DNA of 64,000 bases from Waddlia chondrophila WSU 86-1044 (lineage in GTDB: Bacteria; Chlamydiota; Chlamydiia; Chlamydiales; CAMCWV01): NCBI GenBank assembly GCA_945882915.1, contig CAMCWV010000005.1, positions 18,647-82,646 on the forward strand, read 5' to 3'. Shown here piece after piece: positions 1,614 through 61,595 of this stretch. The position numbers were made by a program, and so were the translations under genes. Numbering within the stretch: the stretch's first letter is position 1; each line of letters begins with the position of its first letter. The notes beneath the pieces were generated by a model, which saw nothing but the letters and a program-made list of their open reading frames with translations, had not been told where the DNA came from and made no database searches.

Positions 1614-1687
1614 ATATACTCCGCTTAGCTAAAAATGGGAACTTGGACTAGCGCGAAAGCTCCCGTTTTCAGCTAAGCGGAGTATAT
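1614..1687. repeat. F1 palindromic element, short form (74 bp)
   Basis: atatactccgcttagctaaaaatggga ... tcccgttttcagctaagcggagtatat. Both ends carry the GCTTA/TAAGC variant. Confidence 0.85.
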
Positions 1688-1688
1688 T

Positions 1689-1883
1689 TAAGGAGCGAGC
1701 TTTGCTCGCTCTTTGGAGTGCTGGGACAAGTCCAACGCTTTTATTAGCCGGGACATGTCCCGGCGTACGCGCTTTTGCCAAAGAACTTTATTGCGATCTT
1801 CCGTACAGACCTCGCCAAATCGAGGTCTGATGAAAGCTAGGACATGTCCCAGCACTCCAAAGAGTTCGCTACGCTCACTCCGG
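1689..1883. repeat. F2 palindromic element, copy a
   Basis: ggagcgagc..ctctttggagtgctgggacaagtcc on the left and ggacatgtcccagcactccaaagag..ctcactcc on the right, with internal hairpins (gccgggacatgtcccggc). Confidence 0.85.
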
Positions 1884-1986
1884 AGCGCGCTATCTGAAGT
1901 CTTATGGGGAAGCACTTTTCTGTTGCTGCGAAAATTCTCAAACGCCATCCTTAGAGAAACACTTAACCTGAGGCCGGACCTAACTC

Positions 1987-2568
1987 ATGCCCTTCACACT
2001 TCAAATCGGAGCAAAAGCTCCTCCTTTTACACTCCTCGCAACAGATGGAAAAAACTATAGCCTTGAAGATTTTGACAGCTCCCCTGTTCTGGTTGTTTTC
2101 TTTACCTGCAATCACTGCCCCTACGTCATAGGCTCCGATGAAGTCACTCGCCAAACAGCAGACAAATTCGCGTCCAAAGGAGTCTTATTCATAGGGATCA
2201 ACTCCAACAGCGAAAACACCAAGCCTGAAGATTCTTTTCCTCTCATGGTCAAAAGGATGGAAGAACAAAAATTCCCCTGGACTTACCTCCGAGACGAGAG
2301 CCAAGCCGTCGCAAAGGCTTACGGCGCGCTCCGCACTCCCCATTTCTACGTATTCAATGAAAAAAGAGAGCTTATCTATACAGGACGGGGGATCGACACC
2401 CCTCGCGATGCCTCACAAATGAAGGTCAATGACCTTGAGCGCATCCTAGGAGAGCACCTCTCTGGAAAGCCCATATTGACACCTATTATACAGCCAATCG
2501 GCTGCAATGTTAAGTGGGATGGGAAGGACGCCCACTGGATGCCAGCTGATGCTTGTGATCTTGTATGA
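1987..2568 (+). CDS. thioredoxin-fold thiol-disulfide oxidoreductase (redoxin/AhpC-TSA family)
   Basis: CxxC motif in [10 protein letters not shown]. Layout is typical of the redoxin family. Confidence 0.75.
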
Positions 2569-3803
2569 GCTCTTCCAGCGCTTTGAGAATTGTTGTTGTT
2601 GGTGGAGGCGCCGCAGGGTTCTTTGCTGCCATCACTGCAAAAGAAAACAACCCCGATGCAAGCGTTGTCTTGCTAGAAAAAACAAGTCAGCAACTTGCAA
2701 AAGTACGCATCTCTGGAGGTGGCAGATGCAATGTCACCCACGCCTGCTTCGACCCGCTTTTGTTAACCAAGAACTATCCCAGAGGAAACAAAGCACTCAT
2801 CGGCCCCTTCCATAAGTTCCAACCACGAGATACAATCGAATGGTTTGAATCGCGCGGAGTTGAGCTTAAAACAGAAGCTGACGGGCGGATGTTCCCCGCT
2901 TCAAACACCTCTCAAAGCATTATTACTTGCCTCATGAACGAAGCAGAAAAAAATGGTGTCGTCATCAGGTTAAAACAGCGACTGCAAGAAGTGTCAAAAG
3001 CAAACGACCTCTTTCAAGTCATCTTGGCCTCTGGCGAGACCTTAACTTGCGAGCGCCTTCTTATTGCTACAGGAAACAGCTCTGAAGGACACGCCTTAGC
3101 TAAGTCTTTAGGGCACTCGATCCACTCTCCTGTCCCCTCCCTCTTTACATTCAACTGCCCCACCTCGCCCCTTCTTGATCTTTCAGGAATTGTTGTTCCT
3201 AATGTCGAGATCTCCGTTGCAGGCTCTTCGTTAATGACAACCGGGCCGCTTTTACTCACTCACTGGGGCTTTAGCGGTCCCGCAGCACTTAAGCTTTCTG
3301 CATGGAGTGCCCGTCTTCTTCACGAAAAAGAATACCGCGTTTCACTCACAATCAACTGGCTTCCTGCACACACCTTAGAGGCCTTGCAAACAACGCTACT
3401 TAACGGAAGAAAAGAAAGGCCCCAAAACAACTTGTGCAAAGAAAACCCCTTCACCCTTCCTAAGAACCTGTGGAACCGATTATTAGAGCTGCAAGGGTTT
3501 CGACAAGGGTTTCAAGAGGGGCGGAAGATTGGAGAGCTCTCTAACGATGACATTCAACGGCTAGTTCAGAAGCTTCATGGCGACAGCTACGAAGTGAATG
3601 GAAAGACAACGAATAAAGAAGAGTTTGTGACCTGCGGCGGGGTTGACCTTGACGAGGTTCACTTCAAAACAATGGAAAGCCGAATTTGTCCCGGGCTATT
3701 CTTTGCGGGCGAAGTCTTGGACATCGACGCTGTCACCGGAGGGTTCAACTTCCAAAACGCCTGGACTACTGGCTGGCTTGCTGGCAATGCTATAGCACAC
3801 TAA
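2565..3803 (+). CDS. HI0933/YhiN (BaiN-like) family NAD(P)/FAD-dependent flavoprotein
   Basis: N-terminal [14 protein letters not shown] dinucleotide fold, [12 protein letters not shown], and C-terminal [17 protein letters not shown] overlap with the upstream gene. Confidence 0.8.
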
Positions 3804-3840
3804 ACTACAGCACACTAGGCAATGGGAGTCGCGCTATAGT

Positions 3841-5442: not shown

Positions 5443-6222
5443 CTAAGACCCAATCTGCTGTGCTATTGGCGCTATAGTGACATAAGCAACAGGTATTGCG
5501 TTCCCAGATGCTGGCGAATTACTTGCTAGAAAAATCGCATGAGCAGATTTAATAACATCCCCTGTAGCATTCACTATAGAAAAGGTTGTTCCTTTAGCGG
5601 TGTCAAACAACACCGAGATTGAGAGCATGTTTTCATCTGAGGCTATCAGAAGTTGACTGCCATCAAGAATCGTATCGCCCTGTTTAATTGCAACAGCTCC
5701 AGTGCCCCCTTTTAAGTCTAATGCCACTCCATAGTGAATCATATACAGCCCTTGAGGCAGCGTAAACACACCATCTTTATAAGAAATGCCACCACTAAGA
5801 GTTTGGGTGGGAAATAATATAGTAGCATTGTCCTCAACAGAGGTGCCTCCAACCTTAAGGAAAGCATGCCCATGCTGAGCGGTGACTGGAACAGGTGAAG
5901 GTCCAGCCGGTCCGGTTGCGCCCGCTGGACCTTTGGCTCCCACTGGACCTGTGGCCCCCGTTAGACCTGTGGCTCCCGTTAGACCTGTGGCTCCCGTTAG
6001 ACCTGTGGCTCCCACGGCACCTGTGGCTCCCGTTAGACCTGTGGCTCCCACTGGACCTGCTGGCCCCTGTATTCCTGGAGGGCCCGGGGGGGGGCACTTT
6101 TTGCAGGAGAAAATGTCATCTATAAGGGATGATCTAAGCGGTGTTTTTTCATCAGCAATCGCGTTTGATATCGGAGCGGAAATCAACAATGCGGCCACAG
6201 TCGCTAAAAGTACTCTAACCAT
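5443..6222 (-). CDS. secreted collagen-like (G-X-Y)n protein with a C1q/BclA-like C-terminal globular domain
   Basis: Signal peptide [21 protein letters not shown]. About 24 uninterrupted G-X-Y triplets ([22 protein letters not shown]...). The C-terminal [16 protein letters not shown] resembles the C1q jelly-roll signature. Confidence 0.85.
5924..6067. repeat. 18-nt tandem array (8 units, 3 consecutive perfect copies of gttagacctgtggctccc) inside the collagen-like gene
   Basis: Direct reading. Units start at 5924, 5942, 5960, 5978, 5996, 6014, 6032 and 6050. Confidence 0.9.
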
Positions 6223-6435
6223 CTTTCAATCCTTAACTGAATAAATTTTTATACTATTACACGCTGCGAAATTGTCGCTAACAGGGCTGTAGAAAAGGAG
6301 TTCCCTCTACAAAAAAAAACTGGATCAACACTATATTCATCTTATCTGAATTTGCAAGAAAAAAATGTAACCCCTTGCAACCAACCGCCCTTACAGGTTG
6401 CTACTCTTAAGCGCTGTAATTATATACTCCTCGTG

Positions 6436-6680
6436 CTTGACAGCGTTTAGCTTAGCGCCCGCTTAAGGAGCGAGCGGCAGCGTTGCTCTTTGGAGTGCTG
6501 GGACAAGTCCAACGCTTTGTTAGGACTCGACCTGTCGAGTCCACTGAACCTTAGCAAGCGAACCTGTGTGTCTGCCCCTCGACATGTCGAGGGCTGGTGA
6601 AAGCGTTGGACATGTCCCAGCACTCCAAAGAGTTCGCTTCGCTCACTCCTTAAACCCAACTGAGTTAAACGTTATCTGCC
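6436..6680. repeat. F2 element, copy b, with extended ends
   Basis: gcttgacagcgtttagc...cttaaggagcgagc...ctttggagtgctgggac ... gtcccagcactccaaagag...ctccttaa...gttaaacgtt. Flanked by 25-bp direct repeats at 6410-6434 and 6708-6732. Confidence 0.85.
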
Positions 6681-6718: not shown

Positions 6719-6752
6719 TATATACTCCTCGTAGTTGAAAACGGGAATTTGG
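6719..6752 (+). repeat. F1 left-end fragment, fused to an F4 element
   Basis: tatatactcctcgtagttgaaaacgggaatttggg, then the sequence switches to F4. Confidence 0.8.
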
Positions 6753-6845
6753 GCCACCTAAGGTCTGGGATTCAGATGGAACCAACGCAAACGTTTGTTA
6801 ATGGGCAGTCTATAATCCCAGGGCGGGACGCCCTGGTTACACACT
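6753..6845. repeat. F4 element (partial)
   Basis: ccacctaaggtctgggatt...aacgtttgttaatgg...cccagggcgggacgccctgg is similar to 49975-50118. Confidence 0.6.
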
Positions 6846-7026
6846 AAAGACAAATGGGCTGTCAGGATGGGCGTAAATAACTTATTTAAAATGTTTTAAA
6901 TAAAAAAATAGTTTGCAAAAATCACACTATTTGGTTATCATTTAGCCAGCTTTTGTAAAACCCGCCTATTCTTTTGAAAAGTCGTGTTACAAAGTTCTTT
7001 TACACCCACACACAAAGTGAACAAAC

Positions 7027-8407: not shown

Positions 8408-8526
8408 GCCCCACAGGCTTAAAATATAATTTGACATCTCAAAGGATTAGACTTACTATTTAATTAAGTGGTGGATCTAACTTGGCATTGCTGTATAATT
8501 ATTTGTTTGATTATTCTTTATTCTTT

Positions 8527-8580
8527 CTGTGTCTCTGCGTTTCAAATATTTTAATATTAAATTTTTGAAACACAGATGCG
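8527..8580. repeat. F3 small AT-rich palindrome
   Basis: ctctgcgtttcaaa-N-tttgaaacacaga. A related copy lies at 38809-38852, with a partial match at 31118-31134. Confidence 0.55.
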
Positions 8581-8620
8581 TAATATGTACTCCTCGGTGA
8601 CGATCGGCAAAGGAATATTT

Positions 8621-10333
8621 ATGGTTCAGAAAGTTACCACCGGCGGCGACAAAATCATTCAGTGCCTCGAACGCGAGGGCGTGGAGGTCGTGTTCGGCTA
8701 CTCCGGCGGCGCCGCGATGCCGATCTTCGACGCGCTGGTCGATTCGCGCATCAAGTTCGTGCTCGTCAGGCATGAACAGGGAGCCACCCATATGGCCGAT
8801 GGCTACGCCCGCGCCACAGGCAAGCCTGGCGTCGTTCTGGTGACGTCGGGCCCGGGCGCAACCAACTGCGTCACGGGACTGCTCACGGCGCTGATGGACT
8901 CGGTGCCGATGATCGTGCTCACCGGCCAGACCATCACCTCAATGCTCGGCAAGGACGCCTTCCAGGAAGCGGACGTGACCGGCATCACATATCCAGTCGT
9001 GAAGCACAGTTATCTGGTCAAGAACGCCGATGATATTCCGCGCGTCATGAAGGAAGCCTTTCATATCGCCACCACGGGAAGGCCTGGACCGGTGCTGATC
9101 GACCTGCCGAAGGACATCACCCAGGGACCATGCACGGCGCCATTTATCGACACAGTAAACCTGCCGGGCTACTATGTGCCTGCCCATCCCGACAGCGCGC
9201 TGCTGTGCAAGACCGCCAGCCTCCTGATGAAGAGCCGCAAGCCAGTGCTGTACGTGGGCCACGGCGCCGTGATCTCGAATGCCGGCGCGGCGATTCTGGA
9301 ACTGGCAAAGGCACTCAACGCACCGATCGTCAACACGCTGCTCGGTAAGGGCGCGTGCGCGGAGGATCACCCGCTGCACTTGGGCATGCTCGGCATGCAC
9401 GGGACGGCCTACGCCAACCGGACAGTGGAGCACTGTGACCTGATCATGGCAATTGGCGCGCGGTGGGACGACCGCATCACGGGCAAGCTCTCGGGATTCT
9501 GTCCCGACGCGGTCAAGATTCATATCGACATCGACGTGGCGGAGTTCAACAAGGTGGTCCGTCCCGATGTGACCATGGCCGCCGACGCGCGGCTGGCCAT
9601 CGAGGCACTAGTGCCACTAGTGGGGCCTCTCGACACGGCCGACTGGCTCAAAGAGATCGCCGGCTGGCGCAAGCAGTACCCACTGAAGTATGCCAAGAAG
9701 GGCGGCCTGCGCGCGCAATATGTCGTGGACCGGCTCGACAAGCTCGGCGGACGCGACTGCATCATCACGACCGACGTCGGCCAGCACCAGATGTGGGCGG
9801 CGCAGTTCTGTCTCACCACGAAGCACCGCCACTGGATCTCCAGCGGAGGCGCCGGGACGGTGGGGTTCGGATTTCCAGCGGCAATTGGCGCGGCCATGGC
9901 AACAGGTAAACCCGTCTGGGCCATCGTCGGCGACGGCGGCTTCCAGATGACCCTCTGCGAGCTGGCTACCGCGAAGCTCCAGAAGGTGCCGGTGAAGATC
10001 CTGATCATCAATAACAGCTACCTGGGCATGGTTCGCCAGTGGCAGGAGCTCTTCTTCGATAACCGCATCTTAGGGGCGGACCTCGAGGGCAATCCTGACT
10101 TCATCAAGCTCGCTGCGGCCTACGACATTCCAGCCAAGCGCATTACACGCGCGGGCGACGTGGACAAGGCCATCAAGTGGGCGATGGCCTATAACGACGG
10201 ACCCTGCCTGATTGAGGCCGAGGTGGTGAAGGATGACAACGTCTTCCCGATGATCCCGAGCGGAGCACCACTCTCGGAAATGCTCACCGAGAAGCCGAAG
10301 GCCAAGATGAAGAAACCGACGGGGTCGACGTAG
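8621..10333 (+). CDS. ilvB: acetolactate synthase (AHAS) large subunit, ThDP-dependent; GC-rich foreign composition
   Basis: VFGYSGGA, RHEQGA.HMADGYAR, GPGATN and the ThDP motif GDGGFQM...NN. Start chosen at the ATG 8 nt after aaagga; the track ORF starts at 8576. Confidence 0.88.
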   Translation: MVQKVTTGGDKIIQCLEREGVEVVFGYSGGAAMPIFDALVDSRIKFVLVRHEQGATHMADGYARATGKPGVVLVTSGPGATNCVTGLLTALMDSVPMIVLTGQTITSMLGKDAFQEADVTGITYPVVKHSYLVKNADDIPRVMKEAFHIATTGRPGPVLIDLPKDITQGPCTAPFIDTVNLPGYYVPAHPDSALLCKTASLLMKSRKPVLYVGHGAVISNAGAAILELAKALNAPIVNTLLGKGACAEDHPLHLGMLGMHGTAYANRTVEHCDLIMAIGARWDDRITGKLSGFCPDAVKIHIDIDVAEFNKVVRPDVTMAADARLAIEALVPLVGPLDTADWLKEIAGWRKQYPLKYAKKGGLRAQYVVDRLDKLGGRDCIITTDVGQHQMWAAQFCLTTKHRHWISSGGAGTVGFGFPAAIGAAMATGKPVWAIVGDGGFQMTLCELATAKLQKVPVKILIINNSYLGMVRQWQELFFDNRILGADLEGNPDFIKLAAAYDIPAKRITRAGDVDKAIKWAMAYNDGPCLIEAEVVKDDNVFPMIPSGAPLSEMLTEKPKAKMKKPTGST

Positions 10334-10378
10334 CGGGCGCGGCGCCTCTTGTCCTTGTTTTTACTTTTCGAGGTTTTC

Positions 10379-10972
10379 ATGCCATTCAACACTGAAACGC
10401 GCGGCATCCAATTCGAATTCGATCCCGGAAAGCCCCCCCGTCGTCGGGAGGTCGCCGCGGCCGTCAAGCCGCCGCTCCACACGCTCTCGCTGCTTATGCG
10501 CAACAAACCGGGCGTCCTCGTGCGCATCTCGCTTGTCTTCTCGCGACGCGGCTATAACCTGGAGTCGCTGGTCTTGTCGCCGGCGCTCTCCGTCGAGGGC
10601 ATGGACGCGATGCCTGGAGAGTTCTCGCGGATGACGATCACCTGCTCGGGGGATCCCGATAGGCTCGAGCAGATCATCAAACAGATCGAGAAGCTGATCG
10701 ACGTGGTGCATGCCATCGATTACACGGGCAAAGCGGTGATCGAAACCGAAGTGGTCCTCGTGAAACTCAAGGCCAGCCTGAGCGGGCGCACCGAGATTCT
10801 CCAGATCGCCGAGAGCTTCAAGGCGACTGTCGGGGACTTCGGGTTGGAGTCGGTCATCCTCCAGTGCGCGGCGGAGACCGAGAAACTCGACGTGTTCATC
10901 GCGCAGCTCACCCCCTTCGGCATCATCGATCTGGTGCGCTCAGGCAAGATCCTGATGATATACTCCTCGTAG
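10379..10972 (+). CDS. ilvN: acetolactate synthase small (regulatory) subunit with ACT domain; the last codons and the stop lie inside an F1 element
   Basis: HTLSLLMRNKPGVLVRISLVFSRRGYNLESL is the ACT signature of IlvH/IlvN. The gene ends ..ATG ATA TAC TCC TCG TAG within the F1 terminus. The start is uncertain (10349 or 10379). Confidence 0.8.
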   Translation: MPFNTETRGIQFEFDPGKPPRRREVAAAVKPPLHTLSLLMRNKPGVLVRISLVFSRRGYNLESLVLSPALSVEGMDAMPGEFSRMTITCSGDPDRLEQIIKQIEKLIDVVHAIDYTGKAVIETEVVLVKLKASLSGRTEILQIAESFKATVGDFGLESVILQCAAETEKLDVFIAQLTPFGIIDLVRSGKILMIYSS

Positions 10973-11123
10973 CTGAAAATGGGAACTTGGACGGCGCCAA
11001 AGCCCCGGGGCTGAACGATCGCAAGCGCCCTTTGTATTTCTAATACTAAGGCACTTGCGATCGTTCAGCCGCGGGAGCTTTCGCGCTAGTGCAAATTCCC
11101 GTTTTCAACTACGAGGAGTATAT
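10958..11123 (+). repeat. F1 element, long form (about 166 bp)
   Basis: Full imperfect palindrome with central loop ctttgtatttctaatactaa. Confidence 0.9.
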
Positions 11124-11285
11124 ACTCCGCTTAGCTGAAAATGGGAACTTGGACGGCGCCAAAGCCCCGGGGCTGAACGATCGCAAGGGCCCTTTGTATT
11201 TCTAATACTAAGGCACTTGCGATCGTTCAGCCGCGGGGCTTTCGCGCTAGTGCAAATTCCCGTTTTCAACTACGAGGAGTATATA
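11119..11285 (+). repeat. F1 element, long form, head-to-tail with the previous copy (shared TATAT)
   Basis: Near-identical to 10958-11123. The left end is the GCTTA variant and the right end the CTACG variant. Confidence 0.9.
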
Positions 11286-11306
11286 CTCCTCGTAGCTGAA
11301 AACGGG
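11281..11306 (+). repeat. F1 left-end fragment
   Basis: atatactcctcgtagctgaaaacggg, then unrelated sequence. Confidence 0.8.
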
Positions 11307-11388
11307 CCGTTCAAGTACTGAGGGTCAAGAGTACCAGTGTCATGCTGTAAGGCTGCAATTACAATTATGCGGGCAAAGCTCGTCTAAA

Positions 11389-13215
11389 TCACTTCTCCAG
11401 CTGCTTATCGAAGCTCACCTTCGTTTCTTCATAAAGAAGTGCGAGCTGCTCTAATTCAGCAAAAAGCAAATCAAGCTTTCTTTTCTTATCGTCGATAGTC
11501 CTCGAAAGCGTTGCAATTGCAAGGCCATCTCCCTTTTGAGAAAGGGCTATGAGATCATGAACGGCTTTCTCGTTTTCTTGATCGAGTGCCATAACTTCAG
11601 CTTCAATCCGGTCCATCTTCTTCTGAATCGGCTGTAGAGCCTTTGATTTGCTATTAATAAGCTCTGTCCGCTTTTGTTTATTTTCACGCCGCTCTTCTGG
11701 CTTGAGCTTTACTTTTACCGCCTTCTCACTCCCCTGCTCCCAACCTTCTTTCTCCAAGAATTCCTCATACCCTCCCAAGAAAAGATGTTGATTTCCTTGA
11801 TGGCAGATCACAAACTTTGAAGGGACTTGCCGCAAAAACATTTCACTGTGGGTTACAATAACAACTGCCCCTTCAAATGAATCTAGGGCCATTAAAAGCG
11901 CCTCGATAGACTCCATGTCCAAGTGGTTCGTCGGCTCATCAAGCAGCAGCAGGTTGCAAGGAGTTGCGAGGATTTTCCCTAAGAGAACGCGGCTGCGCTC
12001 ACCTCCAGACAGCACAGAGATCTTTTTCTTTGCGTTATCATCAGAAAACATCATGATCCCGCAAATCCCCCTAACCTCCGTAAAGGTCATTCCAGGACGA
12101 ACAGAGGCGATCTCCTCTTCCACTGTCATATTAGGGCGAAGACGTTCAATGTTCGTTTGTCCAAAATAACCAATCTTCGCGTTATTTGAAGCCCTAACAG
12201 TGCCCTGATCAGGCTCAAGCTCCTGAGCAATAAGACGGAGAAATGTCGACTTTCCACGCCCGTTTTTTCCAACAACTGCAATCCGGTCATTCTTTTCAAT
12301 CCGAAGACTAAAATTCTGAATAATAGGAGTCTCGCGCTCATAGGCAAACGAGACCTCATTCACCTCCAAAAGCTTCTCTCCGGGTAAAGGGGCATACGAA
12401 AAATCAAAATCGAGATGGTGAAGCTGGGCAAGCTGTTCCAAAACAGGCATTCTTCCAATGGCTTTGGTCCTAGAGCGCGCCTGCCCCGCCTTACTTGCTT
12501 TTGCCCCAAAACGATCAACAAACGACTGGAGATGGTCTCTTTTTTTCTCCATATTCATGCGCGTCCGCTCATAGATCTCTTCTTCTTGTAAGAGCTGGGT
12601 GTAGAATTTCTCTGTTCCCCCCTCAGTCTTACGGATCCCTTTTCGATGAACTCCGAGTGTGTGCGTTGTCACGCTATCCATGAATTCGCGATCGTGGGAG
12701 ATAATAATCAGCTCGCCTTTCCAGCTGCGCAAAAACCGACCAAACCAGCGGACAGAAACAATATCAAGGTAGTTTGTAGGTTCATCCAAAAGTAGACAGT
12801 CAGGCTCACCAACAAGCACCTTTGTAAGATGAATACGGAGCTGATATCCCCCAGAAAACTTCGCAGGAGAGGCGTAAAGATCCTCTTCCTTAAATCCTAG
12901 ACCAAAAAGGATCTTCTCTACTTTATGCAGCTGGTCTTCATCCTGCGGGCGCAAACCTAAAGCCGCCTCTTGAAGCACTGTCTCTTGGGTGAACTTAAGA
13001 TGCTGATTCAAGTATCCAATCGAATAAAACTTAGGCGCAGAAATTATTCCCCCATCAGGCTTTTCTTCTCCGGTAATCATTCGCAAAAGGGTTGTCTTTC
13101 CTGAACCGTTACGCCCTATCAGGCCACACCGCTCTCCCTTATTTAACTTAAATGAGAGCCCTTCGAGGACCGTCTCCCCCATGTAGCTCTTGTTTAACCC
13201 TTCAACCTGAATCAT
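11389..13215 (-). CDS. ABC-F family ATPase (two ABC domains, C-terminal coiled coil)
   Basis: Two Walker A motifs (GRNGSGKTT, GKNGRGKST) and two signatures (FSGGYQLR, LSGGERSR). No membrane domain. Confidence 0.9.
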   Translation of the reverse strand: MIQVEGLNKSYMGETVLEGLSFKLNKGERCGLIGRNGSGKTTLLRMITGEEKPDGGIISAPKFYSIGYLNQHLKFTQETVLQEAALGLRPQDEDQLHKVEKILFGLGFKEEDLYASPAKFSGGYQLRIHLTKVLVGEPDCLLLDEPTNYLDIVSVRWFGRFLRSWKGELIIISHDREFMDSVTTHTLGVHRKGIRKTEGGTEKFYTQLLQEEEIYERTRMNMEKKRDHLQSFVDRFGAKASKAGQARSRTKAIGRMPVLEQLAQLHHLDFDFSYAPLPGEKLLEVNEVSFAYERETPIIQNFSLRIEKNDRIAVVGKNGRGKSTFLRLIAQELEPDQGTVRASNNAKIGYFGQTNIERLRPNMTVEEEIASVRPGMTFTEVRGICGIMMFSDDNAKKKISVLSGGERSRVLLGKILATPCNLLLLDEPTNHLDMESIEALLMALDSFEGAVVIVTHSEMFLRQVPSKFVICHQGNQHLFLGGYEEFLEKEGWEQGSEKAVKVKLKPEERRENKQKRTELINSKSKALQPIQKKMDRIEAEVMALDQENEKAVHDLIALSQKGDGLAIATLSRTIDDKKRKLDLLFAELEQLALLYEETKVSFDKQLEK

Positions 13216-13287
13216 AATTAGACCTCTTTCTTCATTTCTGGCATATTCTGCTCAGTCTTAATCAAACTTAAAACCTATGAGGTAGCT

Positions 13288-13896: not shown

Positions 13897-14005
13897 GCAA
13901 AGAAGGCGCTAGTAAAGAAGTTACTAGTAAAAACTTAGCCCCTGATCTACTCTCTTGGGTAACCAGGTGGGCAGGTTAGGGGGCTAAATAATTAACAGGC
14001 GACCT

Positions 14006-14545: not shown

Positions 14546-14554
14546 GGGCAAATT

Positions 14555-15675: not shown

Positions 15676-16734
15676 TTATGCAGAGCAGAGTTCGCTCTCG
15701 CAGCTTGGTTCGCCTGCCTCAGCTTCTTCTTGCTTCTGAGGCTTAGAAAAGTCAGCTTCGTGCCAAGGGTAACTATTTAGCAACTCAAGAATTTCAGGAA
15801 TCGACTTTGAACGGTTGATCGACTCGCGAAGACCCCGAACACCCTGTCCATTGCGCAGGAACCAGCAACCTACTCTTCGGGTGTCAAATATCGCCTTACG
15901 CTCATCCTGATAGGCGATGATGTGCTGCACGTGCTCTAAAAGTGCATCTCTGAAGTGAATTGCTGTACGTGTTATGGGAGGCTCTCCAGCAAAATGGCGA
16001 TGGATATCTTCGATAAGCCAAGGCTGTCCCATCATCCCGCGCGCTAGCAAGATCGCATCACAACCGGTATCGATAAAGATTTTTTCAGCACTTTGAACAT
16101 CCACAATGTCCCCATTACCAATGACTTTAATGTTCTTTGCCACTTGCTTACACTCGCGGATATAATCCCACACTGCCGGCCCTTTATAGCCTTGAGAGCG
16201 CGTTCTGCCATGAATACAAATTGCTGCTGCGCCCGCCTCTTCCGCAATGCGGGTCACCTGCGGAGCTACGATGCTATTAGCATCCCATCCCACGCGGATC
16301 TTGACGGTGACAGGGATCTTTACAGCTGCGACCATATTCGAGATGATCTCTCCGATTAGGTCGGGATTTTTAAGCATTCCAGAGCCGCTTCCATCCTTTG
16401 TGACCTTATCGACTGGACAGCCGCAGTTTAAATCAACGACGTCAAAGCCCAAGTCTTCAATGATTTTGGCACACTCGGCTGCAAGTTCTGGCTTGCTGCC
16501 GCAAAGCTGCCCGCCAATAGGGTGCATAGAGGGGTCAAAGTCGAGGTAGCGGTAGGTCCCGGGATGATTACGCACTAGAGCGTCCATCTTGACCATTTCA
16601 CAGTAGACAAGGCCAGGCTGATACTTAACTGCCATCTTCCGGAAAGGGACGTCGGAGCAACCTGCCAAGGGGGCGCAGAAGACATTGGAAGGCAAAGAAA
16701 GGTTGCCAAGAGAGAAGGGGCGCTTTAAAGACAT
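15676..16734 (-). CDS. dus: tRNA-dihydrouridine synthase (DusB-like); the start codon is embedded in an F1 terminus
   Basis: CAPLAGCSDVPFR, DLNCGCP and IHGRT motifs. The 5' context on the coding strand is ctAGGAGtatATG. Confidence 0.88.
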   Translation of the reverse strand: MSLKRPFSLGNLSLPSNVFCAPLAGCSDVPFRKMAVKYQPGLVYCEMVKMDALVRNHPGTYRYLDFDPSMHPIGGQLCGSKPELAAECAKIIEDLGFDVVDLNCGCPVDKVTKDGSGSGMLKNPDLIGEIISNMVAAVKIPVTVKIRVGWDANSIVAPQVTRIAEEAGAAAICIHGRTRSQGYKGPAVWDYIRECKQVAKNIKVIGNGDIVDVQSAEKIFIDTGCDAILLARGMMGQPWLIEDIHRHFAGEPPITRTAIHFRDALLEHVQHIIAYQDERKAIFDTRRVGCWFLRNGQGVRGLRESINRSKSIPEILELLNSYPWHEADFSKPQKQEEAEAGEPSCESELCSA

Positions 16735-16899
16735 ATACTCCTAGTAGCTGAAAATGGGAACTTGGACGGCGCCAAAGCCCCGGGGCTGAACGATCGCAAG
16801 TGCCCTTTGTATTTCTAATACTAAGGCACTTGCGATCGTTCAGCCGCGGGAGCTTTCGCGCTAGCCCAAATTCCCGTTTTCAACTACGAGGAGTATATA
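16733..16899 (+). repeat. F1 element, long form
   Basis: Full palindrome, followed by a further left-end fragment at 16895-16910. Confidence 0.9.
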
Positions 16900-20965: not shown

Positions 20966-21132
20966 ATATACTCCTCGTAGTTGAAAATGGGAATTTGGAC
21001 TAGCGCGAAAGCTCCCGCGGCTGAACGATCGTAAGTGCCTTATTATTAGAAATACAAAGGGCACTTGCAATCGTTCAGCCCCGGGGCTTTGGCGCCGTCC
21101 AAGTTCCAATTTTCAGCTACGAGGAGTATATA
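20966..21132 (-). repeat. F1 element, long form, inverted orientation
   Basis: Arms and loop (ttattattagaaatacaaagg) are the reverse complement of the 10958 copy. Confidence 0.9.
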
Positions 21133-27039: not shown

Positions 27040-27114
27040 ATATACTCCGCTTGGCTGAAAACGGGAGCTTTCGCGCTAGTCCAAATTCCCGTTTTCAAAT
27101 AGGAGGAGTATATA
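27040..27114. repeat. F1 element, short form
   Basis: atatactccgcttggctgaaaacggg...ccaaattcccgttttcaaataggaggagtatata. Confidence 0.85.
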
Positions 27115-32257: not shown

Positions 32258-32438
32258 GAATAGGAAGCAAGCCCCCATGCTTTCCGTTTATATACTCCTC
32301 TTAGTTGCGAGCATGTGATTGCCCTGCACTTTTAGCTTTCCAATGAGAGCGCACGCCTAAAGTTCTCAGGCGAAATGTCGATGACTATACTACAAACAGA
32401 ATCCGCTTTGTCTTTGAATTTATAATAAAGGCTTCATC

Positions 32439-33947: not shown

Positions 33948-34000
33948 GCAATTGCCCTCACCTGAAGGCATAGTCGATTAAATCTCAAATGATAGGCTCA

Positions 34001-34136
34001 GACAGCGCCAAAGCTCGCGGGATTAAACAATCGTAAGCAGTTCAATATTAGAAATATAGGCCTGCTTACGATCGTTCAGCCGCGGGAGCTTTCGCGCTAG
34101 ACCAAATTCCCATTTTCAGCTACAAGGAATATATAC
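34001..34136 (+). repeat. F1 element, divergent, lacking the left terminus
   Basis: ..gcgccaaagc..cgtaagcag ttcaatattagaaatatagg cctgcttacgatcgttcagccgcggg...cattttcagctacaaggaatatata. Confidence 0.75.
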
Positions 34137-34893: not shown

Positions 34894-35060
34894 TATATAC
34901 TCCTCGTAGCTGAAAATGGGAACTTGGACGGCGCCAAAACCCCGGGGCTGAACGATTGCAAGTGCCCTTTGTATTTCTAATACTAAGGCACTTACGACCG
35001 TTCAGCCCCGGGAGCTTTCGCGCTAGTCCAAATTCCCGTTTTCAACTACGAGGAGTATAT
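34894..35060 (+). repeat. F1 element, long form
   Basis: Full palindrome. Confidence 0.9.
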
Positions 35061-40387: not shown

Positions 40388-40463
40388 ATATATACTCCTC
40401 TTAGTTGAAAACGGAAGCTTTGGCGCTAGCCCAAATTCCCGTTTTCAACTAAGAGGAGTATAT
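40388..40463. repeat. F1 element, short form, abutting the 5' end of tRNA-Thr
   Basis: atatatactcctcttagttgaaaacgg...ccaaattcccgttttcaactaagaggagtatat. Confidence 0.85.
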
Positions 40464-40960: not shown

Positions 40961-41035
40961 ATATATACTCCTCGTAGCTGAAAATGGGAATTTGGACGGC
41001 GCCAAAGCCCCGTTTTCAGCTAAGAGGAGTATATA
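40961..41035. repeat. F1 element, short form
   Basis: atatatactcctcgtagctgaaaatgggaatttggacggcgccaaagccccgttttcagctaagaggagtatata. Confidence 0.85.
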
Positions 41036-44265: not shown

Positions 44266-44289
44266 AAACTCTACTGTCGGCATGAGGAG

Positions 44290-44456
44290 TATATACTCCT
44301 CGTAGCTGAAAATGGGAAATTGGACGGCGCCAAAGCCCCGGGGCTGAACGATCGCAAGTGCCCTTTGTATTTCTAATACTAAGGCACTTACGATCGTTCA
44401 GCCGCGGGAGCTTTCGCGCTAGTCCAAGTTCCCATTTTCAGCTACGAGGAATATAT
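44290..44456 (+). repeat. F1 element, long form; its right end supplies the SD and part of the ATG of the next gene
   Basis: Full palindrome ending gctacGAGGAatatAT|G. Confidence 0.9.
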
Positions 44457-45056: not shown

Positions 45057-45066
45057 CTATCAAGCC

Positions 45067-45166
45067 TATACTCCTCGTAGCTGAAAACGGGAATTTGGGC
45101 TAGCGCGAAAGCTCCCAGGGCTTTGGCGCCGTCCAAATTCCCGTTTTCAGCTACGAGGAGTATATA
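45067..45166 (-). repeat. F1 element, medium form (about 100 bp)
   Basis: Both termini plus gggctagcgcgaaagctcccagggctttggcgccgtcc. Lacks the central loop segment. Confidence 0.85.
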
Positions 45167-46819: not shown

Positions 46820-48532
46820 ATGATCCGAGGAACGCCACCTGCTGTTGGAGCTCACACTATCCTTAAAGAGCTTGGGCAGGATGGCTTTGGTATCGTTTAT
46901 GAAGCGCAAGACGAGAAAAAACAGCCCATCCTGCTCCGAGTGATTGCTCCGGAAATTTCTAATAACGACAACTTTGTCGTCCGCTTTGAATTGCTAAAAG
47001 CCATCCTCCCCTCAATAGAGCATAAAAACCTTCTTAAAGTAATTGAGCTCGGATCTCATAAAAACATCTTCTTTATTGCTAAAGAGCGCCCTGGGGTAGA
47101 CGGCAAAGCCTTAAATGCGAGCCTACAGACGCTAAATTCATTCGACTTCACAAACACCTCTAGCAACACTCTTGGACGGCACCGCACACTACTTGAGCTC
47201 TTTGAAGGAATTGCTCAAGGGCTCTCTGCCCTTGAGCAGGTGCGCAAAAGCTATTACAAACATGGGATCCTCCACAACAGCTTAAAACCCGATAACATTT
47301 ATATTTTTTCTAACTCCGCGCAAGGAATTCTGTCTCAAGGCACCCCAAGTCCTAAGCTAGATGGTTATGCGGAGCCGTTTTTGTTTTTTGGAGACGGTCC
47401 ACAGTCGCTTCTTCACTATCGAATGGCAACGCCTCTAGCTACTGCTAAAAGACTTAATCAAGAAAAGAACGGGATCCAAAGCAGTCCTCTTAATTTATAC
47501 GGCTATGAACCATTTTACCCGCCGGAATCTCGTCAAGGACTCCCCCTGCACCCCACCTCTATGCAGTATGCTTTTGGAGCTCTTCTTTACCACCACATTA
47601 GCAAACAACATCCAAAAGGGTTGTTTATTCCGCTCAAAGAGCATGACGGCTCTTTAGACCCTCTTTGGGATGAAATCGTCAACCGATGCCTAGCCTCTCC
47701 TCATGGTGGCGGTTATGCGAATATGGGAGAGGTTGCTGGACATCTAAAAAAACAACTCGTCTCTCATCTAGAGCTTTCTCCTGAAGAGAAGAAAATAAAA
47801 AGTATTAAGCCGCCTGCTGGAATGGCACTTGTCGCCTGTTTAGAAAAAGTTGAGATCGGCGCTCATGATGGCCCCGAGAATGAACAGCCCCCCTTCCGGA
47901 TGCGCATCAAGCCATTTTTTATGGATATCTTCCCTGTAACGTTTAAGCAATTTAAAGAGTGCATGCCTCTTTACACGGGCAGTGACTATTCGAGGGGAGA
48001 CAACCTCCCCGCTACACTAATTTCAATCTCTATGGCCAAGGCCTACTGCAGATGGAGAAGCGAAAAAGAAGGGCTGCCACCGCAAACCTACCGTCTGCCA
48101 ACAGAATATGAGTGGGAAGCTGCTGCCAGAGGACAAGGAGGGCTCCAGTATCCGTGGGGAGCTACACAAGATCCCCTTCAGCTCTATTGCAATAAAGACA
48201 AAGAACGAGGAACAATTGCATTAGGACAGCTACCTGCCGGCAGATTTGGCCTTCATGACATGCTAGGAAATGTGTGGGAATGGACAGATTCACTATTTCA
48301 CCCCCACCCCTTTGCAAAGGGAGCTGAAAAGCCTGTATCGCCTAAGCTACACGTCGCAAAAGGCGGGTGCTGGCTCACTCCCCTCGAGCTCTGCAGAGGC
48401 AGTCTCAGGCAAGGCTTTGCCCCACACGAGCCAAAAGCAAACATCGGATTCCGCTGCGCCCGGAACGTCGATTATATACTCCTCGCAGCTGAAAATCGGC
48501 ATCTGGACGGCGCCAAAGCCCCGGGGCCTTAG
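46820..48532 (+). CDS. Pkn1-like fusion: N-terminal protein-kinase-like domain (catalytic motifs degenerate) plus C-terminal FGE/SUMF1-type domain; the last ~20 codons are F1-derived
   Basis: Kinase-like LGQDGFGIVYEA, LLRVI, HNSLKPDN and LDGYA. FGE motifs RLPTEYEWEAAARG, GNVWEWT and GFRCAR. The tail DYILLAAENRHLDGAKAPGP is encoded by the F1 element. Confidence 0.8.
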   Translation: MIRGTPPAVGAHTILKELGQDGFGIVYEAQDEKKQPILLRVIAPEISNNDNFVVRFELLKAILPSIEHKNLLKVIELGSHKNIFFIAKERPGVDGKALNASLQTLNSFDFTNTSSNTLGRHRTLLELFEGIAQGLSALEQVRKSYYKHGILHNSLKPDNIYIFSNSAQGILSQGTPSPKLDGYAEPFLFFGDGPQSLLHYRMATPLATAKRLNQEKNGIQSSPLNLYGYEPFYPPESRQGLPLHPTSMQYAFGALLYHHISKQHPKGLFIPLKEHDGSLDPLWDEIVNRCLASPHGGGYANMGEVAGHLKKQLVSHLELSPEEKKIKSIKPPAGMALVACLEKVEIGAHDGPENEQPPFRMRIKPFFMDIFPVTFKQFKECMPLYTGSDYSRGDNLPATLISISMAKAYCRWRSEKEGLPPQTYRLPTEYEWEAAARGQGGLQYPWGATQDPLQLYCNKDKERGTIALGQLPAGRFGLHDMLGNVWEWTDSLFHPHPFAKGAEKPVSPKLHVAKGGCWLTPLELCRGSLRQGFAPHEPKANIGFRCARNVDYILLAAENRHLDGAKAPGP

Positions 48533-48636
48533 CGTTTGCCCTCTCCAGAAGGTAACCCTTTAATTGCTACGGGCTTCTTCTCTTTTTTTCTTTTGTGCGC
48601 CGTCCACATTCCCGTTTTCAACTACGAGGAGTATAT
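48473..48636. repeat. F1 element whose centre is replaced by other sequence (includes an F4 piece at about 48528-48562)
   Basis: Left end tatatactcctcgcagctgaaaatcgg..ggacggcgccaaagccccgggg. Right end gcgccgtccacattcccgttttcaactacgaggagtatat. Confidence 0.8.
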
Positions 48637-48893
48637 TTAAGGAGCGAGCGTAAGGGAAGCTCTTTGGAGTGCTGGGACAAGTCCAACGCTTTCACCAGTC
48701 CTCGACATGTCGAGGACTGTACGAAACTCTCGCTTACTAAGGCTGAGTGGACTCGACATGTCCAGGCGTACGATGTGGTGGACTGCTACGCTTTACTAAC
48801 CCAACAAGGGCGTACACTCCTCGACATGTCGAGGAGTGTTGAAAGCGTTGGACAAGTCCCAGCACTCCAAAGATCGAGCGATGCTCGATCCTT
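48637..48893. repeat. F2 element, copy f (longest, three CGACATGTC hairpins)
   Basis: ttaaggagcgagcg...ctttggagtgctgggacaagtcc ... ggacaagtcccagcactccaaagatcgagcg..ccttaa. Confidence 0.85.
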
Positions 48894-48920
48894 AAATATA
48901 CGCCTCTTAGCTGAAAAAAA
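48894..48920 (+). repeat. F1 left-end fragment
   Basis: atatacgcctcttagctgaaaaaaaa. Confidence 0.7.
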
Positions 48921-49172
48921 ACCGCGGAAGCGGTAATTAAGCGGCAAAGCCGCGGCAGATGCTAGCCGTAGGTGCCCGAAGGGAACCTGCGGAAGTGTGT
49001 ATAAAAAAACGCAGGGCCGCGGCCAGCGGCGACACTCTTTCTGTGAGAAATGTCGCCACTGACCGTGGCTTACTATTATAATTCTACTAGTCCGTAGGTT
49101 TCCCTCGGTCACCTACGGCTAGCATCTGCAACGGCCTTGCCGCTTAATTACCGCTGCCGCGGTTTAAATAAC
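48920..49172. repeat. F6 GC-rich element, full hairpin form
   Basis: Arms aaccgcggaagcggtaattaagcggcaaagccgcggcagatgctagccgtagg.. and ..cctacggctagcatctgcaacggccttgccgcttaattaccgctgccgcggttt. Confidence 0.8.
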
Positions 49173-49174
49173 CC

Positions 49175-49308
49175 CGTCTTTTCAAAAATGAAGTGCAAAA
49201 ATTGAGTTAAAAAAAGAATAGTCAGGTGATGAAAAAATCTATCGCCTAGATCTTGAACCTGCTCCAGCCTGTTGACAGCATATTCTCAACGCGAATTGCT
49301 CAATCTAG
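49175..49308 (-). repeat. F5 element, copy c (inverted)
   Basis: Reverse complement of the 35923-36056 pattern, full length. Confidence 0.85.
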
Positions 49309-49335
49309 GTCAAATGACAGGGCGAAGCCTTTATT

Positions 49336-49920: not shown

Positions 49921-50193
49921 ATTATAATATCCTCATCTTAGCTGAAAACTGGAAAAATTATCCTAAACAAGCGCTTGCCCTTTCTAGAAGGTAACGTGGA
50001 CCGCCTAAGGTCTTGGATTTCAGACCCAAGCCTACAACAAACGTTTGATTAGTGGTAGGTTAGACCCCAGACCGGGACGGCTCACGTTGCCTTCTGGAGA
50101 GGGTAAACGCTTGTTTTGAGGCTTCCAGGTGAAAAATCGTGATTTTTGTGGAAACTTAAAGAGCTTGTTTTCAGCTAAGAGAAGGATATAACT
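49921..50193. repeat. composite: degenerate F1 termini enclosing a full F4 palindrome
   Basis: Left ataatatcctcatcttagctgaaaactgg. F4 at 49975-50118 (gaaggtaacgtggaccgcctaaggtc ... gacggctcacgttgccttc). Right gttttcagctaagagaaggatata. Confidence 0.7.
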
Positions 50194-55319: not shown

Positions 55320-55410
55320 AATAAGTAATGAGCTCGATTTTATTAGTTATGCAAGACGTACAATTTAACCCAAAAATGACTTTAAGAAAAGATAAAACAG
55401 GACCTTCCGA

Positions 55411-55496
55411 CCCAGATTGAGCAATTCGCCTTGAGACTATGCTGTCAACGGGTTGGAGCAGGTTCAAGATCTAGGCGATAGATTTTTCTCATCATT
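55411..55496 (+). repeat. F5 element, copy d (3' truncated)
   Basis: cccagattgagcaattcgccttgagactatgctgtcaacgggttggagcaggttcaagatctaggcgatagatttttctcatca. Confidence 0.85.
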
Positions 55497-60710: not shown

Positions 60711-60749
60711 GGGCCTAAGACTCCTTGAACTCTATCCGGCAGAGTACTA

Positions 60750-60916
60750 ATATACTCCTCGTAGCTGAAAATGGGAATTTGGACGGCGCCAAAGCCCCGG
60801 GGCTGAACGATCGTAAGTACCCTTTGTATTTCTAATACTAAGGCACTTACGATCATTCAGCCGCGGGAGCTTTCGCGCTAGCCCAAATTCTCGTTTTCAA
60901 CTACGAGGAGTATATA
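60750..60916 (+). repeat. F1 element, long form
   Basis: Full palindrome. Confidence 0.9.
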
Positions 60917-61007
60917 TTCCTTTTAGCTGAAAATGGGAATTTGGGCTAGCGCGAAAGCTCCCGCGGCTGAATGATCGCAAGTCGCCCAATATTAAAAATA
61001 TACTCCT
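60911..61007 (-). repeat. F1 element, truncated (left half only)
   Basis: tatatattccttttagctgaaaatgggaatttgggctagcgcgaaagctcccgcggctgaatgatcgcaag, then diverges. Confidence 0.8.
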
Positions 61008-61096
61008 CTTAGCTGAAAACGGGAATTTGGATGGCGCCAAAGCCCCGGGGCTTTGGCGCCATCCAAATTCCCGTTTTCACCTAAGAGGAGTATATA
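61008..61096. repeat. F1 element, medium form, near-perfect palindrome
   Basis: ...ggatggcgccaaagccccggggctttggcgccatcc..., with TCTTA/TAAGA termini. Confidence 0.9.
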
Positions 61097-61156
61097 GTCT
61101 CATTCGTCAACACTTCTTCTTGACACCCTTATTAAAGTCCTTAAAAGGAAGATTTC

Positions 61157-61549
61157 ATGTTCATTATAAAAAGAACCTACCACTTTGAAGCTGGACACAA
61201 CCTGCCGCTCGTCAAAGGAAAGTGCCAAACACCTCATGGCCACTCTTTTCTCTTAATAGTAAGTTTAAAGTCCCCAACTCTCAAGACAAAAGGGGCAGAA
61301 AAAAACATGATCACCCCTTTTGAAAAGATTGATGCCCTTGTCATGCCGATGATGCAAAAGTGGTTTGACCACAAATGGCTAAACGAAAGCCTCAAAACAG
61401 ACGCTCCTACTTGTGAGTTTATGGCTAAGTGGATTTATGACCACCTAAAGCCAAGCCTTCCCGCCCTCTACTCGATTGAAGTCTCTGAAAACGCTCTCTG
61501 CACCGCCATTTATATACTCCGCTTAGCTGAAAATGGAAGTTTGGGCTAG
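61157..61549 (+). CDS. queD: 6-carboxytetrahydropterin / 6-pyruvoyl-tetrahydropterin synthase family; the last ~12 codons are F1-derived
   Basis: YHFEAGHNLP and C..PHGHSF catalytic motifs. The tail YILRLAENGSLG is encoded by the F1 element. Confidence 0.8.
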   Translation: MFIIKRTYHFEAGHNLPLVKGKCQTPHGHSFLLIVSLKSPTLKTKGAEKNMITPFEKIDALVMPMMQKWFDHKWLNESLKTDAPTCEFMAKWIYDHLKPSLPALYSIEVSENALCTAIYILRLAENGSLG

Positions 61550-61595
61550 CGCGAAAGCTAGCCCAAACTTCCATTTTCAGCTAAGCGGAGTATAT
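61511..61595. repeat. F1 element, short-medium form, perfect palindrome
   Basis: tatatactccgcttagctgaaaatggaagtttgggctagcgcgaaagctagcccaaacttccattttcagctaagcggagtatat. Confidence 0.9.

Follow-up and report, generated by a model that had tools for sequence, protein, structure and literature searches.

Here we report on a family of foldback repeats, named F1, which is scattered over a 64,000-nt stretch of contig CAMCWV010000005.1 (positions 18,647 to 82,646 of the forward strand; hereafter, the window). All together, our data make it likely that F1 is a family of non-autonomous elements with terminal inverted repeats, that is, of miniature inverted-repeat transposable elements (MITEs), in the genome of an uncultured bacterium. 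This assignment is carried by the size and repetition of the copies, by their inverted ends and invariant flanks, and by the way in which the shorter forms relate to the longest one.

Identification and inventory of F1

The decamer TATATACTCC was found 22 times in the window, both strands included, while 0.04 occurrences are expected from dinucleotide-preserving shuffles, and repeat finding showed that the sequence around it falls into overlapping families with common ends. Starting from an alignment of the seven copies of 165-166 nt, we built an nhmmer profile, as suggested in an initial annotation of this DNA, and rescanned the window with it. All 14 copies listed in that annotation were recovered, together with others, for a total of about 18 substantial copies and seven end fragments. 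The annotation had described F1 as abundant and had counted 18 substantial copies and about eight fragments, and both statements are borne out by these results. Its coordinates also led to a copy in every case, although the one placed at 61008 really starts at 60998, 10 nt away.

Altogether, F1 accounts for 2548 bp, corresponding to 4.0% of the window, and occupies about 25 sites in 64 kb; additional copies were found on three comparison contigs (L005, L011 and L031), so that the family consists of many dispersed copies. The seven long copies are 93-98% identical in pairwise comparisons, with copies differing from each other by 2-7%. F1 copies measure from 72 to 166 nt, a diverged relative reaching 263 nt, and are therefore well within the size of a MITE (less than about 400 bp). 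The family lacks protein-coding capacity, as is usual for MITEs: six-frame translation of F1 revealed stop codons in four of the six frames, with two frames of 49 amino acids remaining open, and the six-frame peptides gave no match among 5.8 billion protein clusters.

Anatomy and architectures of the elements

A full F1 copy is about 166 nt long and combines inverted ends of about 27 nt with a central hairpin and with two arms, A and B, that differ slightly from each other. Specifically, the long form starts with the left end (ATATACTCCTCGTAGCTGAAAATGGGA, about 27 nt) and continues with the A segment (CTTGGACGGCGCCAAAGCCCCGGGGC), the central hairpin (TGAACGATCGCAAGTGCC, loop, GGCACTTGCGATCGTTCA), the B segment (GCCGCGGGAGCTTTCGCGCTAGTCCAAAT) and the right end. 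Complete copies are all bounded by ATATACTCC...GGAGTATAT, and in most of them the left 27-34 nt are the reverse complement of the right end, with 0 to 6 mismatches, thus forming terminal inverted repeats. Each complete copy folds as one long hairpin, with DNA folding energies ranging from -16 to -67 kcal/mol and z-scores from -4 to -23, calculated against mononucleotide shuffles. The foldback with two distinguishable arm types seen in the initial annotation is confirmed by these values, its arms corresponding to the A and B segments.

The long form is represented by seven copies. Two of them, at 10958..11123 and 11120..11284 (both plus strand), form a tandem pair with an ATAT in common, which is followed by a left-end fragment at 11281..11311 (plus). 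The other plus-strand copies map to 16733..16898, with an 18-nt left-end stub just after it (16895-16912), to 34895..35060, to 44291-44456, where a preceding 10-nt right-end stub extends the feature to 44281..44456, and to 60750..60915, while the copy at 20966..21131 lies in the opposite orientation (minus). In addition, a relative of the long form, in which the loop is variant and the left end degenerate, maps to 33997..34134 (plus), and half a long copy, from the B arm to the loop, is found at 60912..61000 (minus), cut where the next copy starts; neither had been listed earlier by coordinate.

The remaining copies depart from the long form in several ways. Three size classes nested in one another had been proposed earlier; the size differences are confirmed, but a single nested series is not, as we could distinguish at least six architectures. 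Besides the long form, these are the long form without its central hairpin (45065..45165, 101 nt, minus), an A/A' form (60998..61095), a B/B' form (61512..61595), short forms with one and a half arms, and copies with a foreign core.

The short forms are of two mirror-image types. In the B type, found at 1614..1687 (74 nt, minus), 27040..27113 (74 nt, plus) and 40390..40463 (plus), the left end is joined straight to the B segment at ...AAAACGGGA|GC and the right end follows, the first of the three copies being inverted. In the A type, represented by 40963..41034 (72 nt, plus) and by a further copy just outside the window (L005 20014-20086, with matched GCT/GCT ends), the left end and the A segment are joined to the right end at ...GCCCC|GTTTTC. 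Both types of short form, as well as copy 45065, are internal deletions, with 3-5 nt of homology at their junctions.

A different picture was obtained for the two other medium forms. The 98-nt copy at 60998..61095 joins A to its own reverse complement, with a single mismatch over its whole length and the centre at CCCC|GGGG, and the 84-nt copy at 61512..61595 joins B' to its own reverse complement, with perfect 39-nt arms around a GCGAAA loop. In both cases the centre of symmetry coincides with a short self-complementary motif of the long form, which is AGCCCCGGGGCT, a palindrome of 12 nt, for A and AGC-GCGAAA-GCT for B, and private variants located deep in the arms are mirrored (GGATGG/CCATCC in 60998; GGAAGTTTGGG/CCCAAACTTCC in 61512). 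Since no deletion could convert an A/B element into A/A' or B/B', some step of inverted copying must be involved, and snap-back (template-switch) synthesis at these small palindromes would give exactly such products. Therefore, the earlier view of the short forms as internal-deletion derivatives holds for the shorts and for 45065, while the symmetric medium forms call for inverted copying.

Two copies, again not listed earlier by coordinate, carry a foreign core: a 163-nt element at 48474..48636 (plus), in which F1 ends and an A segment surround a different core, and a 263-nt foldback at 49927..50189 with diverged F1-like ends (ATATCCTCATCTTAGCTGAAAAC / ...GTTTTCAGCTAAGAGAAGGATAT). The inventory is completed by a left-end fragment at 6422..6458 (plus), a left end joined to a different GGNCCNCCTAAGGTC module at 6720..6792 (plus), a left-end fragment of the TCT variant at 32290..32312 (plus), and a diverged F1-like left end (ATATACGCCTCTTAGCTGAAAA) at 48896..48921 (plus), which is joined to a foldback of another family, F3. 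In conclusion, the comparison of these architectures shows the long form to be the source of the short and medium ones.

End variants and possible selection on the hairpin

F1 ends differ mainly at positions 10-12, which read TCG, GCT or TCT, plus single cases of TAG and TCC; the three end variants initially described correspond to the first three. The same variant is present on the left and on the right in 11 of the 15 complete copies, compared to 5.7 expected (permutation p = 0.0013). When only minority variants are considered, 4 matches are observed against 0.93 expected (p = 0.0023); these are all in short or medium copies. Left/right matching better than chance, as previously claimed, is thus upheld, although on a small sample. 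Matched ends are carried, for example, by 10958 and 34895 (TCG/TCG), 1614 and 61512 (GCT/GCT), and 40390 and 60998 (TCT/TCT), whereas 11120 (GCT/TCG), 16733 (TAG/TCG, the TAG variant recurring in its adjacent stub), 27040 (GCT/TCC) and 40963 (TCG/TCT) are mixed. The mirrored and mixed copies reported earlier are as described, except that 16733 and 27040 have to be added to the mixed ones. One deletion architecture occurs with several end variants, and the resulting reticulate pattern may reflect either recurrent deletions or an exchange of ends between copies.

Mirrored ends had been taken to suggest selection on the hairpin or, alternatively, hairpin-templated copying. The seven long copies carry 32 private substitutions, of which nine fall at unpaired positions, 17 break a pair, six keep it through a G-T wobble and none is compensated. 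With 0 of the 23 private stem substitutions compensated, selection on the hairpin is not supported. Hairpin-templated copying is supported for the two palindromic medium copies, on the basis of their mirrored private variants and of centres placed on pre-existing palindromes. Moreover, the asymmetries between L and R' in the long form (positions 16, 23 and 29) are unchanged in most long copies. Copies would then decay neutrally after insertion, and symmetry would be made when new source copies form, rather than being kept by selection.

Flanking sequences and target site

Every complete copy starts with (A)TATACTCC and finishes with GGAGTATA(T), therefore showing 5'-TA-3' termini, and is flanked by an invariant ATAT; immediately beyond it, T prevails on the left side and A on the right. 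The inspection of flanks for a TA target duplication, proposed in the initial annotation, thus returned an invariant TA/ATAT flank and, beyond the ATAT, no longer direct repeat flanking the copies. Tandem copies overlap by exactly ATAT or TA, generating the sequence GGAGTATATACTCC four times; they share one ATAT/TA, as would be expected from a duplication of either TA or ATAT.

Copy 45065 (left flank CC-TATACTCC) and two foreign relatives start with C-TATACTCC. These starts favour an element TACTCC...GGAGTA with a duplicated TA in an A-TA-T context, but agree just as well with a duplication of the 4-nt ATAT, and the ATAT/TA, being invariant on both sides, is not separable from the element itself. 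The comparison of orthologous loci, also proposed earlier, did not uncover an empty site, either in the alternative assemblies of these loci or in relatives: the closest homologues of the aconitase encoded in the window are at most 83% identical, and contig L004 (78%) shows neither synteny nor F1.

Variation between assemblies at F1 sites

F1 copies are frequent stopping points of short-read contigs, and some of them coincide with differences between assemblies. At the tandem pair (10958/11120), present in the window and in contig L010, the L002/L009 contig carries one copy with its own pattern of single-nucleotide polymorphisms. Contig L011 departs from the window at 6739, 20 nt into the F1 end at 6720, and runs into an ATPase_2/AAA_16 gene and another F1 copy (L011 14200-15967). 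Contig L031 follows most of the copy at 44291, including its private A at position 29, then shows a different right end (from about 44425) and leads straight into carA, whose ATG overlaps the terminal ATATG; in L031 6001-13197, carA-carB are followed by further F1-like ends around a new core (12826-12901). The distinguishing positions of L031 are separated by about 100 nt, whereas the 'k141' contig names suggest a k of 141, so that a simple mis-join of the graph seems unlikely. For both L011 and L031, the junctions reflect either rearrangements mediated by F1 within the population or contigs that were joined chimerically.

Position of F1 copies with respect to genes

The window is an ordinary piece of chromosome, which includes ilvBN, two ABC-F genes, a mitochondrial-type aconitase, a membrane pyrophosphatase, a photolyase, four tRNAs, accBC, efp and rpsA. 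The aconitase is at most 83% identical to any other protein in the collection searched, and its nearest named relatives (66-68% identity) come from Bdellovibrionota, Oligoflexia and 'Deltaproteobacteria' metagenome-assembled genomes. Because these relatives are distant, we tentatively place the host in an uncultured, poorly sampled lineage, possibly Bdellovibrionota-like.

Every F1 copy lies in an intergenic region or reaches no further into a gene than its last codons. Specifically, copy 10958 overlaps the last codons of ilvN (10349-10972), copy 48474 the last 59 nt of an FGE-sulfatase/kinase open reading frame (ORF), and copy 61512-61595 supplies the last 12 codons and the stop codon of the PTPS gene (61157-61549). 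Several other copies lie close to gene starts. Copy 20966-21131 fills the region between two divergent genes, 35 nt from the ATG of the aconitase (start at 20931) and 57 nt from its neighbour (at 21188); copy 40963-41034, in a 152-nt intergenic region, is 16 nt and 66 nt from two divergent genes; and the cluster at 60750-61095 fills most of a divergent promoter region, with copy 60750 lying 40 nt upstream of the start of an amino-acid kinase gene (minus strand). In addition, copy 16733 is about 98 nt upstream of the Dus gene start, and copy 40390 is 1-2 nt from the 5' end of tRNA-Thr (40314-40388, minus).

Two genes, the ORF at 44455-44940, overlapped by the terminal ATATG of copy 44291, and carA, start at an ATG formed by the F1 terminal ATAT and a G (window 44453-44457; L031 6164-6168). 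The F1 motif GAGGAG lies 3 nt upstream of these ATGs, and the element may thus supply a ribosome-binding site. The loop of the long form contains a weak sigma-70-like motif, TCGCAA-17-AATACT, and in the loop of copy 20966 (21042-21070, minus), facing the aconitase, both hexamers are nearer to consensus (TTGCAA-17-AATAAT). A link between F1 and the small GIY-YIG gene located 42 nt downstream of copy 34895-35060 (35102-35374) was also considered, as a GIY-YIG gene is present beside the F1-like element of contig L014 (1537-1860); the two proteins are 29% identical, and the association is probably a coincidence.

Search for a mobilising enzyme and for related elements

Scans with Pfam and NCBIfam profiles, together with gene tables, did not reveal any transposase with F1-matching ends in the window or in about 25 kb of additional sequence. 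In the window they returned housekeeping genes and one decayed IS3-type element (37796-39086), with an HTH_Tnp_1 ORF at 38446-38796 (minus) and a truncated rve_3 ORF at 37981-38340 (minus). Therefore, the earlier statement that no transposase with matching ends is present holds true, with the addition that the window does contain a decayed transposase with unrelated ends. Its candidate 23-nt inverted repeats (37796-37818 / 39064-39086) are unrelated to F1, and we rejected this remnant as the F1 parent. The remnant lies within the stretch of the window with the lowest GC content.

The exact 21-nt F1 end sequence gave no match in species-representative genomes and in JGI metagenomes, blastn of F1 against PLSDB plasmids returned a 35-nt chance match only, and a search of viral contigs with the junction palindrome GAGGAGTATATACTCCTC returned one chance match. 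Nothing relevant emerged from the literature, searched by F1 sequence strings and by MITE and Bdellovibrio. Thus, with no match in Rfam, in plasmids, in the literature searched by sequence or in three collection scans, F1 cannot be assigned to a named family, as already concluded in the initial annotation.

The 18-nt junction palindrome GAGGAGTATATACTCCTC was also found in 15 metagenome contigs, which by our own estimate is about the number expected by chance. Seven of these contigs (L014, L015, L016, L018, L019, L021 and L024) are not chance matches, since they carry other short palindromic repeats ending in ATATACTCCTCG...CGAGGAGTATAT, which include solo ends and tandem junctions, and in a hand alignment the ends from L014, L016 and L018 match F1 at 17-18 of the first 20 positions. 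An AlaRS fragment on L016 has only Gammaproteobacteria as named relatives, at 71-77% identity, indicating that this contig is gammaproteobacterial. A family of transposases that recognise ends would be expected to leave such a trace, with one terminus maintained in different phyla on otherwise different cores. It is conceivable, though we give it only a small chance, that F1 and the other ATATACTCCTCG-ended repeats belong to a cross-phylum foldback superfamily, moved by an enzyme not yet linked to it and copied through a snap-back, single-strand hairpin intermediate that would repeatedly re-symmetrise the arms. If this were true, such a superfamily would represent a mode of propagation distinct from that of classical cut-and-paste MITEs.

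Proposed mode of movement and alternative explanations

We propose that a transposase, whose gene would lie in another part of the genome, placed the F1 copies at (T)ATAT(A) sites; that this enzyme would duplicate TA, as do members of the IS630/Tc1-mariner superfamily, is a guess. Derivatives would then be formed by two routes. Internal deletions at homologies of 3-5 nt, as in interrupted repair or replication slippage, would give the first class. Along the second route, the nascent strand would fold at a short palindrome in one arm (the 12-nt motif of A, or AGC-GCGAAA-GCT in B) and copy itself, giving rise to centre-deleted, perfectly symmetric elements. Symmetrisation of this kind, followed by amplification of the symmetric copies, would make left and right end variants match. 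Once inserted, copies would decay neutrally, as passive features that replace 3' codons and sit in promoter or 5' untranslated regions (5'-UTRs), and would probably serve as recombination sites.

Several observations weigh against the assignment of F1 to transposase-mobilised MITEs. No autonomous element with F1 ends was found in the roughly 90 kb searched, and none of the alternative assemblies provides an empty site, so that the ATAT could be part of the element. The IS630/Tc1-mariner attribution draws only on the TA flank and the AT-rich target, and the proposal of snap-back synthesis on two copies and on a partial A/A' copy found in L011. In addition, the density of F1 is uneven, with no copies in the 7.4 kb upstream of the window and one in the 9.8 kb downstream, and the alternative junctions of L011 and L031 could be assembly joins through repeats.

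An explanation that dispenses with a dedicated transposase is that F1 spread and diversified through host processes alone, namely hairpin template switching, tandem duplication, and exchange between copies by recombination or gene conversion. Complete or partial tandems with a common ATAT, the presence of one or two copies at 10958 in different assemblies, the alternative junctions inside F1, the mosaic of end variants across architectures and the snap-back-type palindromes are all compatible with it. However, recombination alone does not generate about 20 unrelated intergenic sites with precise ends and an invariant ATAT, and a 12-nt terminus found also on different repeats of a gammaproteobacterium points to an end-recognising enzyme. 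We therefore regard this explanation as improbable.

F1 might also be a REPIN-like element, moving as a single-stranded DNA hairpin through a Y1/HUH transposase (RAYT or a relative of IS200/IS605) instead of a DDE enzyme. In fact F1 forms a hairpin over its entire length, a single-strand intermediate would easily produce both the symmetric derivatives and the mirrored variants of the arms, and no DDE transposase with matching ends was found. The subterminal GTAG of F1 (CTCGTAGCTG) presumably resembles the conserved GTAG of REP sequences, but neither the GCT and TCT variants nor the foreign relatives with the same terminus contain it. REPs are 20-40 nt GC-rich imperfect palindromes, unlike F1, whose ends are not palindromic themselves and which carries a 27-nt inverted repeat at its extreme ends, with an AT/TA flank; IS200/IS605 elements, for their part, are not known to carry terminal inverted repeats. 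Moreover, no Y1_Tnp-type gene is present in the window or in the additional 25 kb, flanks included. On balance, a REPIN-like nature appears distinctly improbable.

As to the possibility that F1 copies are hairpins selected by the host, acting as RNA processing sites, terminators, promoters or protein-binding sites, their location offers some arguments: several starts (those of aconitase, Dus, PTPS, a PP-loop gene and tRNA-Thr) have a copy 16-100 nt upstream, F1 overlaps the 3' ends of three genes, the sigma-70-like motif of the loop is improved in copy 20966, and the right end GAGGAG-TAT-ATG abuts two start codons. These arguments are countered by the lack of compensation at all 23 private stem substitutions, by the mixed orientation of the copies, many of which are truncated or nested, and by two computational results. 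In the region scanned for consensus matches (10000-29999), promoter-like and terminator-like matches are not enriched (22 versus 18.7 and 27 versus 24.2, respectively). Rfam 15 at the gathering threshold detected only the four tRNAs in the window, F1 giving sub-threshold matches to generic hairpins (microRNA precursors). We hence consider host selection of the family very unlikely, although individual copies may have been co-opted by the host.

Finally, an origin of the repeats as assembly artefacts, which the initial annotation had listed as the outcome that would remove the claim entirely, can be practically dismissed: the window and all comparison contigs are metagenome assemblies, and two alternative junctions fall inside F1 copies, but the same copies occur at the same sites, with 99.8-100% identity, in MEGAHIT assemblies obtained independently for six or more ENA samples and in two Logan runs, and copies diverge from each other by 2-7%.

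Other repeats and features of the window

A second foldback family, F2, of 190-260 nt (TTAAGGAGCGAGC...GCTCTTTGGAGTGCTGGGACnnGTCC ... GGACnnGTCCCAGCACTCCAAAGAGC...GCTCGCTCCTTAA), is present at 1688-1890, 6463-6655, 17103-17300, 21688-21875, 30877-31072 and 48637-48895. An F1 right end immediately precedes two of its copies (TATAT|TTAAGG at 1687/1688 and 48636/48637), and another copy is 4 nt from the F1 left-end fragment 6422-6458. Like F1, F2 shows an AT-only tetranucleotide (TTAA) beside GGAG/CTCC. The third foldback family, F3, of about 280 nt, is found at 48922-49175, preceded by the diverged F1-like left end mentioned above (48896-48921), and at 61596-61760, where half an element is cut exactly at the end of F1 copy 61512-61595.

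An 85-nt repeat with 88-89% identity and a T-run at its end occurs at 35918-36000, 44946-45028 and 55406-55488, and in reverse complement near 49247-49310, directly behind gene ends or between them; it could represent either a further small mobile element or a terminator common to these sites. A conserved module (…GGTAACGTGGNCCGCCTAAGGTCT…) lies in or beside F1-type ends at 6750-6860, 17019-17064 and 49975-50120, and also at 48520-48560. It found no Rfam match at threshold and could be a subterminal sequence of the parent element.

Three further features were recorded. The ilvB-ilvN block (8500-11000) has a GC content of about 0.55, compared to 0.42-0.48 elsewhere, which hints at a foreign origin, and in one assembly gene callers mis-called opposite-strand ORFs in it. 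A collagen-like gene (5443-6222) with 18-nt (GXY) repeats differs between assemblies in its repeat region (96.9% identity over 830 nt with L011). Lastly, a tandem array of about eight copies of a 68-nt unit (27788-28331) overlaps the region of a small Smr-domain gene, and its copy number depends on the assembly.

Comparison with known elements

If our reading is right, this region bears one of the densest local MITE loads of bacteria, with F1 covering 4% of the window next to at least three other foldback families. F1 copies would sit in promoter or 5'-UTR regions of core genes (aconitase, tRNA-Thr and PTPS), would have rewritten the 3' ends of three genes, and coincide with structural differences between assemblies. 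The family would offer a natural series for MITE diversification, from the long form to deletion forms and to symmetric snap-back forms, and the 12-nt terminus in common with gammaproteobacterial repeats provides a handle for finding the transposase family. On the practical side, repeats of this kind interrupt the assembly of short reads in this lineage and can give rise to chimeric contigs.

Bacterial MITEs are defined as small, non-coding elements with inverted ends, terminal TA and a target duplication (PMC2229807; PMC5896051). F1 corresponds to this description in being small, non-coding, multi-copy and intergenic, with terminal inverted repeats and terminal TA.

Correia elements fall into two size classes, of 155 and 107 bp, which differ by an internal deletion (PMC2229807). 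These elements (CREE/NEMIS, of Neisseria) are, like F1, small non-coding foldbacks with inverted ends of about 26 nt and terminal TA, densely distributed in intergenic regions, often at gene starts and ends, and found in several end-variant combinations. The likeness is architectural, by description, and no sequence similarity emerged from our searches. F1 shows more architectures, including the symmetric A/A' and B/B' forms, its host is unrelated, and its local density is higher (about 0.3 per kb in the window). To our knowledge, no cognate transposase has been described for Correia elements.

The RUP element of Streptococcus pneumoniae is about 100 nt long, has inverted ends and inserts at TA; its ends match those of IS630-Spn1 (PMC2229807). 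F1 resembles RUP and other IS630/Tc1-mariner-derived MITEs in its TA/ATAT flank and AT-rich target context, but differs in that no IS630-type element or autonomous partner was found for it in the window and the additional 25 kb. Its terminus, (TA)TACTCCTCG, also loosely resembles what we take to be the terminus of the plant MITE Stowaway, TA-CTCCCTCCGT.

With REP sequences and REPINs (RAYT), F1 has in common that the repeats are abundant intergenic hairpins made of two inverted halves, with symmetric arms in some copies. It differs from them by its long terminal inverted repeats with AT-rich tips, in place of short GC-rich palindromes, by the lack of a visible RAYT gene, and by long copies that show no compensatory evolution.

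QMITE1 and QMITE2 of Coxiella burnetii and the RPEs of Rickettsia are elements of 100-400 bp with 21-29-nt inverted ends, existing in full and reduced versions (PMC5896051). Like F1, they are lineage-restricted and overlap gene ends; they differ from it by variable direct repeats of 2-9 bp, compared to the invariant ATAT of F1, and share no sequence with it, and RPEs are often located in frame within genes, while F1 touches only 3' ends. In conclusion, these comparisons suggest that F1 is best filed as a new MITE family, that is, as a new member of a well-known kind of bacterial repeat and not as a new kind of system.

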